Source: Felis catus (taxonomy: Eukaryota). Taken from it: a DNA stretch of 64,000 nt. Positions 1,399 to 17,374 of this stretch are shown here, in pieces. The stretch covers positions 87,856,001-87,920,000 of the forward strand of contig NC_058368.1 of the NCBI RefSeq assembly GCF_018350175.1. The letters run 5' to 3'. Under the pieces are notes generated by a model, which had not been told where the DNA came from, ran no database searches, and was given only the letters and a program-made list of their open reading frames with translations. Position 1 is the stretch's first letter. Each line of letters opens with the position of its first letter. Position numbers and translations under genes: made by a program.

Positions 1399-1588
1399 GG
1401 GGCAGTCCTGGGGGCTCAGTCCCTTAAGCGTCTGACTCTTGATTTCTGTTCTTGTCGTGATCTCATGATTGGTGAGTTCAAACCCACAGCTCAGAGCCTG
1501 CTTAGGATTCTCTCTCCCTTTCTGTGCCCCTCCCCTGCTCATGCTCTTTCTCTCTCAAAAATAAATAAAACAAAAATAAATTTAAAAA
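1399..1588 (+). mobile_element. Carnivore tRNA-derived SINE (Can-SINE), internally deleted
   Basis: ctgggggctcagtc..ttaagcgtctgactcttgat head, CT-rich segment, A-rich tail. Confidence 0.85.
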
Positions 1589-1654
1589 GCATCCCAGAGA
1601 GTACGTGTGACTGGAGTGATAGCGCATGGCCACCGCCCCGCCCAGCAGGCTCAC

Positions 1655-7873: not shown

Positions 7874-8016
7874 CTGCAGGAGCAAAAGCACAGTCTTGAG
7901 TCATCCCATACCTGGGCTTCGGGCAAAGGGTATGCTCAGAGTTGGGGGGTGTGGGAGGAGGGGCAGCGACTGTGTGGAGCGGGGGCTGCTGGCATCCCCA
8001 GTGGCCACTCACTTAC

Positions 8017-8189
8017 CAGATGTCCGAGGCCTCGCTCACAGGAGTCTGCTCAATGATCTCAGGGGATACAAACTCTGGGGAGCCATACTTGCTGTATTGT
8101 GGCTCTACTGGGGTGATTTTTTGGGCAAAGCCGAAGTCGCAGATTTTAATGTCCTCCCGAGCGGGATGCACCATCAGGATATTTGGGGG
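8017..8189 (-). CDS. OBSCN: OBSCN exon, kinase 1 (PPNIL...KICDFG...YGSPEFVSPE...SDIW)
   Basis: ORF 8013..8222; cag/gtaagt. Confidence 0.96.
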
Positions 8190-8498
8190 CTGTGAGACAC
8201 AGTCAGGGAGAGGGGAGGCCATGCCCTAAGGAGGGGGCTCCCAGGGCCGCAGGGAACACACAAGGGTCTGTGAAGGGCTTTCCCAAGGCAACAGTGATGC
8301 TGGTGGGATAGTGGGCAGTCTTGGGGTAGGTTTTAGTGCTATTTGGGGACAGCTTCCAGTTCATCCGAGCTGTATCCCACCTGATATCACTCTGCATCCC
8401 CAGAGAGTCTGGAAGTGCTAGACTTGCCTCTACCCGCCCCCCCCCCCATGTTCAGGGTCCCTCCCTGGTCCCTGCGGGGCCCCAAGAAGGTCAAGCAC

Positions 8499-8576
8499 CT
8501 TTATGTCCAAATGGAGAATGCTCTGGCCGTGCAGATAATGCAGCCCTTCTGCCAGCTGCTGGATGTACACCTTGAC
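8499..8576 (-). CDS. OBSCN: OBSCN exon, kinase 1 (VKVYIQQLAEGLHYLHGQSILHLDIK)
   Basis: cag/gtgctt; HLDIK catalytic loop. Confidence 0.95.
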
Positions 8577-8963
8577 CTGGAACCGAGGCCAGGGCTCAGA
8601 GGAGGTCCATCCTCCACCTACTGCTCCACTTGCCCCCAGATCTGAGCTGGGCACGGATCCCGCAGGGCAGGTGATGTGCAAAGCCTCCCAGAGCCCAAAG
8701 CCAGAGGATTCCTCCAGCCCGGAAAGCAGATGGGCCTGACTAAAGCCGGAAGCACCTGGTGTCTCAGGAGGGAGGGCCCCACCAGCCAGGTGGTGACTGG
8801 GAGAGGAAAGCAGTGGCCCCCCGGGGAAGGGGGGTGCATGGAAGGGCTTAGAGAGCCCTACTGAGGAACTGCCACACCCCATGAGGCCCGGGGGAACCCC
8901 AGAAGGTTTCCAAGATGGGGTGTGCTGGGTGTGGCCAGGGAAAACAGGAGACCGTGCAGTTAC

Positions 8964-9024
8964 CTCAGCCTCGGTCACCACACTCTTCTTGAACAGCCGG
9001 TCCAGCAGCTCCTCTGAGGAGCAC
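8964..9024 (-). CDS. OBSCN: OBSCN exon, kinase 1 (CSSEELLDRLFKKSVVTEAE)
   Basis: cag/gtaact; acceptor preceded by U12-like branch site. Confidence 0.93.
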
Positions 9025-9527
9025 CTGGGGCTCAGGTCAAGGAAAGCTCTGGAGTCTGGAACCCACCTGGCCCCACACACACCTCCTATCTTGGGGTGGG
9101 GGTGGGGGCCAAGCTGGGGAGGTTGGTGCTCAGACTGTGGAGGGTGGGAGGGACAGAGACCCCAAGGAGGGGGGCCAAGGTCAGCGGACAGCAGCAGAGT
9201 GGGAGGGGTGAGTAGGGCATGTGCACCCCTCCCTGGAGCTCGGGTGGGCTGCCTGAGGACCCTCAGCATTAGCGCTGAGTGTGGCCCATAAGTCTGACCT
9301 CCCTGCTGGGCAAGGCCCCGTGGAGCGTGGGATGGCCCAGTGAGGGCTTGTCTTGGACCCTGTGACACAGCTCTGCCAAAATTCCTGAGCCAGGGGACCG
9401 CGAGCTACAAGGCCAGGGCTGTGTCCAGGAATAGCAGAACAGGCCCTGCTGGGGCCCTCCGACCTATGCCTGCCAAAGGTCTGCGTGGGCGCTCCTTTTC
9501 TTGGCCTCTGGCCTGGCTGTGGGATAC
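9025..9527 (-). other. Probable U12-type GT-AG intron
   Basis: 5'ss GTATCCCA; TTCCTTGAC branch motif (9044..9036) 11 nt before intron end; no polypyrimidine tract. Confidence 0.7.
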
Positions 9528-9728
9528 AGCTCCAGGACAAGGATCAGGGTCTTCCGGGTCTCAAACTGGTCAAGCAGCCCTGTGACCAGCGGGTGGCTGA
9601 GCGTGGCCAGGATGTCCCTCTCGCGGTACGCCTGGGTGCGCGTCCTGCTCCGCAGGGGGATGAACTTGGCCGCGCAGAACATCTGGTTTCCCTTGTGCTG
9701 CACCCTCTTCACGAAGCCGAACACGCCC
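9528..9728 (-). CDS. OBSCN: OBSCN exon, kinase 1 N-lobe (GVFGFVKRV...CAAKFI...LILVLEL)
   Basis: ORF 9464..9724; cag/gtatcc. Confidence 0.95.
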
Positions 9729-9789
9729 CTGGGAGGAGGGGAGCCACGCTGAGGGCGCGCCGGTTCCCCAGGACGGGGTTGGAGGAGCG

Positions 9790-10430
9790 GTGGAGTTCCC
9801 GGAGAGCTGTGCTCACGAGGGTCCTCCAGGGAAGGAGGTTTCTGGGGGACTGGGTTCTGGGTGGGGGTGCCCGTGCCCTTGGGTCAGCGGGAGGGGTGGA
9901 GCTCCTGAGAGGCGGAATTTCCGGAGAACAGGGGGGTGGGAAAGAGGGTGCTTTGTGGACGGCGGGGTCCCGAGGCGCAGGGGTTCCAGGGGATACTGGC
10001 GGCTCCCTGGAGAAAGCTGGTGCTCCGTGGGGGCGGGGTCCCGGGAAGCTGGGGCTCCCGGGGGGCTGGGGGCGGGGACTTGAAGGAAGGGGCTCTGGGA
10101 GGTGGAGGTTGAGGGGCGGAGTTCAGGGGACGCAAGGGTCCCCGGGGACCAAGGGTTCCAGGGGTGCTGGGGGCTCCCGGGGGAGAAGGCAGGTGCTCCG
10201 TGGTGGGCGGGGTTCCTGGGGCACAGGGGTTCCCGGGTCGCAGGGTTTCCAGGATCCTGGGGGTTCTGGGGGCGGAGATTGGGAGGAAAGAGCTCTGGGA
10301 GGCGGGGACTGAGGGATGGAGTTCCAGGGATTCAGGGGTCCGCGGGGCGCGGGGGTTCCAGGAGGTGCTGGGGGCTCCCAGGGCGGAGAGTCGGGGGAAG
10401 GGGCTCTGGGTCGCGGGGGTGTCGAGGAGC
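9790..10430. repeat. Degenerate G-rich tandem repeat filling a kinase 1 intron
   Basis: recurrent ggggttccaggg / gtgctgggggctccc / gggctctggga motifs. Confidence 0.7.
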
Positions 10431-10464
10431 GGCCCTCTCCTGTGGCTGCGTTTGTGGACAATAC

Positions 10465-14556: not shown

Positions 14557-14562
14557 TTTATT
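14557..14562 (-). terminator. Poly(A) signal for obscurin-A
   Basis: AATAAA ~550 nt after the A stop codon, followed by GT/T-rich ctgtgtcttctctgctttcttg. Confidence 0.8.
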
Positions 14563-15110: not shown

Positions 15111-16245
15111 TCAACCCTGGGAGGGGCTGGGGGCCTTGTCCCCATCTGGGTGGATGTGCAGAGTGACCGTCTCACCCACTGTCCCAAAGCTGACTGTCTG
15201 GGTGGAAACCTCTGTTTTGAAGCTGCTCTGGCCACTGTCTGCAGACCGCTGGACATGGGTGCAGAAGGACGGCTTCCAGGAGGTAGCATCCCCAGCCCGC
15301 ACCTCCTGCACACAGAAGGAGACTCCACTGGGGCCAAGGACTTGAGGCCCTGACGGAGACACTTCCTGGTGACTGAAAAAGCTGGATCGGCCTCGTGGGC
15401 CCAGGGGACGCCCCACATTGAGCAGGACAGGCCGCCCCACAGTGGGCTCACTGATCTCTCTCTGAAGCACAGAGACCTCGCAGGGTGGGTCATCAGAAGT
15501 GCTGGGCACTGGGCCATGACAGCCGAAGGTCTCCCCCTCCCGGGGCACATAATCCTCCAGGTCAGCCAGCGTCAGCACTCGGCCGTCATGTGTGAGGACC
15601 TTGGGGTCACGGCTCCAAAGGCTGTTGGTGCCCTGAGGCTCCTCTGTCAGGAGGGCACCTCCTTCCTCCATCTCCTCCAGGGGAGCCTCTTCTTCAGCTG
15701 CTTGGGGAGGGAAAGGCTCAGGGGTCTCCTCTGGCCCAGCATCCATGCAGAAGGTGAGAGGCTCTCCAGCACTGACTATGGTTCTGCCCTGGGCCTGGGG
15801 CTCCTGAGCCAGGAACTTGTTGTTGGAATTGTTTGCATTGGGGTCTCCTGTGGGTGTCCCACCTGACATCGTGAAGAGGAGCCCTGTGGAGCTGTTGGGT
15901 GCCTCTCTGGCAGGAGATGCACCCCTGGAGCCCGTCTTCTTCACCTGGACTTCAATAGTCTCCTCAACCTCTACCCACTTGGGTTGGGGCCTCGTGCCCT
16001 GGGGCAGGGCCGGTGTGTGGGACTCAGGCTCCGTCACGTACAGCGTGGGCACAGTGGGCCTCCAGCCTGGTTCCACCTCAGGCTTTCGAGGCTGGCTGGC
16101 CCCCAGTGAGTAGAGCACCTCGGGGGCCAACTGGCCTGGCCTGGGTGGGCTGGCAGTGCGGCGAGAAGGCGAGCGGGAAGGGGACTTGTTGGGGGACCGG
16201 CGCCGGCCACGGGGGCTCTTCACCACGGTGGTGATGGTCTCCTCT
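15111..16245 (-). CDS. OBSCN: Obscurin-A terminal exon, non-modular ankyrin-binding tail
   Basis: ORF 15111..16277: EETITTVVKSPRG..., KWVEVEETIEVQVKK, LTLADLEDYVP, FGTVGETVTLH; cgcag acceptor. Confidence 0.95.
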
Positions 16246-17374
16246 CTGCGGGGAGAGGGCCAAGAGGAAATGGGCACAGAGACCTGCAGCCTTGCTCAGT
16301 GCCCGCACCATCAGCACATGCAGGGGCCACATGAGTGATTGGGTTAGTGTCCTCACAAGCAAGTGGTGACACTGCACAAACTCCTACACATGTGCTTGAG
16401 CCCAACCTCTGGAACCTACAGAGAACCAAAGAAACAAAGCACAAAGCCCCATCTGGCTAACCTCAAACTCTAGTGTGCATATCTCAAAACAAGAGTTAAG
16501 GCATCAGGGGAGGGCCATTTCACATTACAAGGTGCCTCAAAACCCCAGACTGAGACTGGTTTACAATGTCTCTGTGTGCTAGTCTCTCCTCCATTTATGA
16601 CCAGCTCACTTCGGAGATCCCAGTGCTCTTTGTGCAGTTAATGGGAAGGTATGCAGGGACATAGCCATATGGCCTTCCTTGTCCATCCCACCAGTGCCTT
16701 ATGCTTTATATCATGTGGGTTACCCCAGTGAGCCCTCAGAGAGCAGGAGCCATCCATAAGATGTAAATAATAGAGATGCTCCTTTCATGGATGAAACATA
16801 GAGTTAATCTGTATAAAGCTCAGACACAGTCACATAGCTCCAGGGATGGGGTACTTACTACTACCCCATGTATTGTGGGGCAGCAACGTGCCTTGGGGGA
16901 GGAGGGAGGAAGTCGAGGAAGAGTTAACCCAGGATCTGACCAAGTGTCTGATGATAAGATTCTCCATAACTTGAACAACTTCAGGCCCCTTGAGGAGGTC
17001 ATAGGTCCATGGGGACTAACCAGAGTTTCCCAGCCATCTGGTCTTAGACCAGTTTTTCTTTCCTCCTGGCTTTTGCAAGCTTTTCCACAATCTCCACCTG
17101 CACACACCCTCTAGCGGAAGTCCTCCCGATAATCCAGGTCAAAACCAATTCTTCCTTCTGTGGTTTCACTCAGCTCCAAACCTCTTGTGTAATTTAAGTA
17201 GCAACAACCCCAGCCTTGAAGGCACCAAAGAAAGGGATGGCGGGCGTGGCACCGGGGAAATGGGTTATCCGTTGGCTTCCAATCATGAGACACCCTGAGC
17301 AAGCCTCTTCCCTGAACGTGAGTTTCCCCATCTCCCTAATGCTAGGGTTGGGCTTGGAGACATGTAAGGGACCT

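Follow-up and report, generated by a model that had tools for sequence, protein, structure and literature searches.

A spliced U12-type intron in kinase 1 of cat obscurin-B, very likely the orthologue of a catalogued minor intron

Minor introns catalogued in OBSCN and SPEG

OBSCN and SPEG are both minor-intron genes in human and mouse according to the supplements of Olthof et al. 2019 (PMC6717393; Minor Intron Database lists), in which one minor intron per gene and species is entered for OBSCN. The human OBSCN intron (chr1:228367176-228367885, 710 nt) is listed with the donor GCT/GTATCCTGC and the branch site TTTTCCTTGATG, and the mouse Obscn intron (706 nt) with ACT/GTATCCTGT and TTTTCCTTAACG (files 1 and 8); the corresponding human/mouse scores are 98.7/100 for the 5'SS and 80.2/91.3 for the BPS. 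Both genes are also entered with disease terms in file 2 of PMC7507305. Full-text searches, with 14 of the hits judged by title, found no literature text that discusses the minor intron of either gene. Rows for OBSCN and SPEG are absent from the text supplements of PMC11347168 and PMC10639083, online databases lying outside that search. The main text of PMC6717393 does not mention Obscn, the main text of PMC8767276, which concerns minor-splicing inhibition in cardiomyocytes, names neither Obscn nor Speg, and the TOGA2 preprint added nothing on the minor intron of either gene.

The kinase-1 intron of cat obscurin and its removal

The DNA analysed here, referred to as the window, is a 64-kb stretch of the Felis catus genome (GCF_018350175.1, NC_058368.1 87,856,001-87,920,000); all coordinates are those of the window, and the gene lies on its minus strand. 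A 20-exon model running from 11,123 to 27 is stop-free and encodes 1456 aa. Its layout is an Ig domain, kinase 1, an extended linker, Ig- and Fn3-like segments and kinase 2; Pfam supports a single Ig exon and two exons of kinase 1. We take the gene to be that of obscurin-B from this domain layout and also from the match to published splice sites. The exon for the kinase-1 N-lobe (9528-9728, minus strand; GVFGFV...LILVLE) is recognized by Pfam as Pkinase (E 3.6e-08) and returned only distant kinases in a PDB search; the 61-nt exon on the other side of the intron (8964-9024, minus; CSSEELLDRL...) is defined by the exon model and by contigs. Farther upstream, an open reading frame at 15111-16295 (minus), with AATAAA at 14562 and no Pfam match, presumably contains the last exon of obscurin-A, in keeping with the earlier claim that obscurin-A ends upstream of the intron. 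Within the kinase-2 region, one intron carries a short SINE-like insertion at ~1440-1590 (minus) that appears to resemble a carnivore SINE.

The intron itself extends from 9527 to 9025 on the minus strand (503 nt, phase 2, GT-AG) and splits LVLEL/CSS in kinase 1, an assignment made in the preliminary description on which the sequence, the exon model and a contig junction all agree. Its donor reads GAGCT/GTATCCCAC and its acceptor TTTCCTTGACCTGAGCCCCAG/GTGCTCC, and the reading frame is open across the junction (...LILVLEL/CSSEELL). At the 5' splice site (9519-9530, minus; GCT/GTATCCCAC, -3 to +9) the GTATCC core is intact and the two mismatches to RTATCCTT are +7C and +8A, +7 being T in human and mouse OBSCN. 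The branch motif TTCCTTGAC (9036-9044, minus) matches TTCCTTRAC without a mismatch and puts the predicted branch A, assigned from the consensus, at 9037 (-13). U12 branch motifs usually lie 10-20 nt from the 3' end. Both the perfect branch motif and the donor deviating at +7/+8 had been described before and are confirmed. The 3' splice site is the CAG at 9025-9027 (minus), on the evidence of sequence and contigs, and no use of the AG at 9032-9031, 6 nt nearer than the one used, was seen in contigs.

Other properties of the intron accord with its class. Minor introns show a bias against phase 0 and against -1G (PMC7367187, Moyer et al. 2020), and the kinase-1 intron is in phase 2, has no -1G (the exon ends in CT, with T at -1) and has no U2-type polypyrimidine tract. 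Its donor has three mismatches to GTRAGT, and the exon that follows begins with G. From -15 to -4 the acceptor is 58% pyrimidine, the joint lowest value among 19 introns, and 17% T; the initial statement that there is no polypyrimidine tract is therefore roughly right, the sole run being CCCC.

Among the introns traced, the combination of signals is confined to this one. TTCCTTRAC has one match in the window, with both strands scanned, and it is located at this acceptor. The minus strand has 13 RTATCC sites, the other 12 of which, judged by eye, do not resemble the end of an exon paired with a suitable acceptor. Across the 19 introns traced from 11,123 to 27, only 9527-9025 has at most two mismatches to RTATCCTT together with none to TTCCTTRAC, the next best having three (donor) and two (branch), and the claim that it is the sole GTATCC donor among the traced introns holds for all 19. 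Under a first-order Markov model the chance of TTCCTTRAC in the 11-nt slot of one acceptor is ~6e-5, and that of the donor and branch motif jointly over 19 introns is ~2e-6 (first-order Markov/dinucleotide model). A chance motif is ruled out as the explanation by these probabilities and the observed junction. A separate intron at HLDIK/P (8190-8498, minus), spliced in three of the four runs described below, has a weak GTGCTT donor and a CTCCCTGAC motif that differs at two positions from the consensus of U12 branch sites, with its A at -14.

Contigs from four sequencing runs, presumed to be of RNA and with the tissue not given, were compared over 7950-10250; rare forms drop out of such contigs. 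The exact 503-nt skip is found in contigs of three of the four runs, which come from three studies, and the fourth run gave 0 reads (~2% sampled). The intron is accurately spliced at 9527/9025, and the exact contig junction rules out misplaced splice sites. No alternative joint at this intron appears among the contig joints, from which rare forms are lost. The junction contigs have depths of 276, 836.9 and 14.6 in the three runs, and depth within the intron is 19.2, 14.3 and 10.9, contig depth being a poor measure from which no retention rate can be derived. Neighbouring U2 introns have contig depths of 17.3 and 29.3 in run X3 and of 2.4 and 48.6 in run X4.

Two further features of these contigs concern the surrounding sequence. 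In run X4, one contig connects exon 8576-8499 directly to exon 7873-7847 and omits the 173-nt catalytic-loop exon at 8017-8189 (minus), an omission that leads to a frameshift and an early stop. Single-letter differences are present in X3 contigs at 8064, 9157, 9186, 9662 and 9753, that at 9157 also in X4; they are probably alleles, and none lies within the splice signals.

The same position in related kinase domains

In the SPEG-like kinase 1 of the cat genome (L003/L021), a 1290-nt intron interrupts the same codon in the same phase, with the donor GCT/GTATCCTGG and the branch 12-mer TTCTCCTTGATC, whose A is at -13. The cat donor and branch 12-mers are identical to the human SPEG entries in the PMC6717393 supplement. 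Because the SPEG-like kinase 1 carries the same intron, the U12 state appears to be older than the split between OBSCN and SPEG.

We compared 15 related kinase domains of the cat's own genome, drawn from genome searches and from stretches of that genome. A phase-2 intron at the codon after the hinge glutamate is present in 11 of the 15, two of them U12-type (OBSCN and the SPEG-like kinase 1) and nine U2-type: TRIO-, KALRN-, DAPK1-, DAPK2-, STK17A-, STK17B- and MYLK-like domains and two more MLCK-like domains (L048 and L049). Comparison with the PDB served to check the names DAPK1 and STK17A; the remaining names are putative. None of the seven U2-type paralogues with scored 3' ends has a U12 branch motif near -13. 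The position is intron-free in the DAPK3-like (L006) and titin-like (L016) domains and in both kinase-2 domains (L011, L013). In obscurin kinase 2 the exon across it (676-915, minus) reads LILELCSG without interruption, as the preliminary description had noted; a genome search with this exon returned itself alone, and it has no Pfam match at 0.01. Seven remoter matches fall outside the 15: L007, L015/L050, L017 and L020 are continuous through the position with no intron, and the alignments of L018, L019 and L051 stop short of it.

A tree built on 90 columns from 16 kinase fragments, excluding the two partial MLCK-like domains L048 and L049, places the two U12 carriers together (92/93), with the deep nodes open. 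The -1 letter is T or A in all 11 carriers, which fits the usual model of repeated conversion of an ancestral U12 intron; codon constraint also explains it, and a U2-to-U12 switch may have taken place at this position instead. Whichever the direction, the paralogues are a clean natural case of an intron changing class at a single position.

The machinery for minor splicing is encoded in this genome, in which the U11, U12 and U6atac genes have full-length matches above the Rfam cut-offs. In a toy duplex with cat U6atac the OBSCN donor pairs at -2.9 kcal/mol, more weakly than that of SPEG (-4.6 kcal/mol), and seven paralogues are at -1.9 kcal/mol or weaker. Duplex energies for U11 and U12 fail to discriminate between the two intron classes; for the U12 branch arm the values are -8.2 kcal/mol for the OBSCN intron, -9.2 and -8.2 for two U2 introns within the window, and -11.7 for the KALRN-like intron.

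Donor variant, isoforms and known systems

We consider it highly probable that the spliced kinase-1 intron is of U12 type, that it has a likely orthologue in the OBSCN minor intron of human and mouse and is a likely substrate of the minor spliceosome, that its +7C is tolerated and that the U12 state predates the split between OBSCN and SPEG. Orthology, which is very likely, is deduced from gene identity, the xCT/GTATCC exon context and the single intron listed per gene. Since the same intron is thus very likely catalogued in human and mouse, the cat intron is an ordinary conserved copy, and the preliminary assignment to the U12 class agrees with the OBSCN and SPEG minor introns looked up for both species in the PMC6717393 supplement. 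The cat adds one more mammal to a catalogued minor intron, little new as a finding. What it does show is a GTATCCCA donor that is accurately spliced.

The preliminary description had also suggested that the intron might be partway through conversion from U12 to U2, and in that event the major spliceosome would now splice it, in part or entirely, in this lineage. We regard this as highly improbable, and the evidence leaves the suggestion unsupported. In its favour, +7C and +8A are off consensus, +7 is also off the human/mouse orthologue, the downstream exon opens with G, and the existence of nine paralogues with U2-type donors at the same position implies that the class has changed here before. 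Against this, the branch motif is not only perfect but nearer the consensus than the human OBSCN TTCCTTGAT, the donor is a poor match to GTRAGT, a U-rich tract is absent, and the contig joints (which lose rare forms) include no alternative site. Intermediates amenable to the major spliceosome are described as combining A-2G-1 with a weakened CC in the branch site and a pyrimidine tract, and introns without -1G as responding to minor-spliceosome inhibition (PMC11347168, Olthof et al. 2024); the cat intron has C-2T-1 in place of A-2G-1, its branch motif has no mismatch and its tract is weak. Donors with +7C are, moreover, catalogued. A 794-row table in PMC6717393 with cells for both species contains GTATCCT 853 times, GTATCCC 30 times and GTATCCCA 12 times; SSU72 has ACT/GTATCCCA in human and mouse alike (file 1), and the INTS7 intron is listed as minor in both species though its +7 is T in mouse and C in human. 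A donor with +7C is thus a variant that is tolerated and lies within the catalogued range, and together with C-2T-1, the perfect branch motif and the weak tract the catalogued +7C donors make conversion in progress unlikely.

U11/U12 bind the donor and branch site of a minor intron jointly, and U6atac then replaces U11. At the kinase-1 intron, U11/U12 would bind the GTATCC donor and TTCCTTGAC together, U6atac would take the place of U11 at the donor, the lariat would form at the A at 9037, and splicing would go to the AG 13 nt past it rather than to the AG 6 nt nearer. Removal of the intron would fuse the N-lobe and C-lobe of kinase 1 in frame. If the intron were retained, translation would meet an in-frame stop 61 nt in, upstream of many junctions, so decay of such a transcript is predicted to be likely. 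We infer from this stop that full-length obscurin-B would need the minor spliceosome, and that obscurin-A and an isoform with kinase 2 only would not. The single-kinase isoform contains the C-terminal kinase only (PMC3916441, Ackermann et al. 2014), so removal of the kinase-1 intron would not be required for it; the earlier proposal that kinase-bearing isoforms depend on the minor spliceosome accordingly narrows to those with the whole of kinase 1. The same paper also describes a tandem-kinase isoform in which the first kinase is present at least in part; as of 2014 its transcript was yet to be identified. PMC12812942 (a review) and PMC11995854 name short obscurin isoforms without giving their 5' ends.

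That partial first kinase lends some appeal to a reading in which the U12 intron marks a switch in the heart: the intron would be left mostly unspliced there, or a transcript would start inside kinase 1, giving a tandem isoform with a partial first kinase. The supplement of PMC6717393 gives a mis-splicing index (a fraction) of 0.995 for the Obscn minor intron in mouse heart, with no skeletal-muscle value (files 4 and 6), and an alternative 3' event in human-heart OBSCN, CAT8, at 0.376. In the cat, an ATG at 9269 (minus, inside the intron) is in frame with the kinase-1 C-lobe, and the 736-nt intron upstream is richer in CpG than its neighbours. Several points nevertheless make such a switch quite unlikely. 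One flanking major intron of Obscn, which flank being unlabelled in the rows, has an index of 0.997 in mouse heart, nearly equal to that of the minor intron; as a U2 neighbour behaves equally, the signal is not specific to the U12 intron, and an internal start or some other heart isoform is a better explanation than slow splicing of the U12 intron. The cat runs, tissue not given, are mostly spliced (depth 19.2 and 14.3 in the intron against 276 and 837 at the junction in two of them), much as at the U2 neighbours, and the context of the 9269 ATG is weak. It is likewise unlikely that whole kinase 1 is scarce in the heart through a start inside kinase 1 or an unspliced intron, with the tandem-kinase isoform arising there and the 0.995 being its overlooked trace. 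Were the heart switch real, it would locate the transcript of the tandem-kinase isoform.

As observations on the locus, the frame of the 9269 ATG enters the kinase-1 C-lobe and stays open to the window end (1350 aa). The U2 intron at 9729-10464 (minus) is 70% GC and shows the top intronic contig depth in both X3 and X4. Its CpG observed/expected is 0.57, where four neighbouring introns have 0.14-0.21; it is a candidate internal promoter.

The U12-type introns are a reminder that kinase 1 of obscurin-B and of SPEG likely needs the minor spliceosome, SPEG being a myopathy gene (PMC7507305 file 2). With the human and mouse OBSCN introns, as entered in the supplement, the cat intron shares the gene, a single GT-AG minor intron, the xCT/GTATCC donor and a TTTTCCTTRA-type branch site; it differs in length (503 nt against 710 in human and 706 in mouse), in its donor (+7C/+8A against +7T/+8G in both) and in the end of its branch site (GAC against human GAT and mouse AAC). 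The SPEG kinase-1 minor intron is alike in codon position, phase and the branch A at -13, and differs in its length (1290 nt, to the 503 nt of OBSCN), its donor GTATCCTGG and its branch motif CTCCTTGAT. The nine paralogues have a phase-2 intron at the same position, and their donors are of U2 type (GTAAGT, GTGAGT, GTGCGT). The SSU72 intron, listed as minor in human and mouse, has the same CT/GTATCCCA donor and a CCTTRAC branch site; it belongs to an unrelated gene, and its sole relevance is to the stability of this donor variant as a U12 form.
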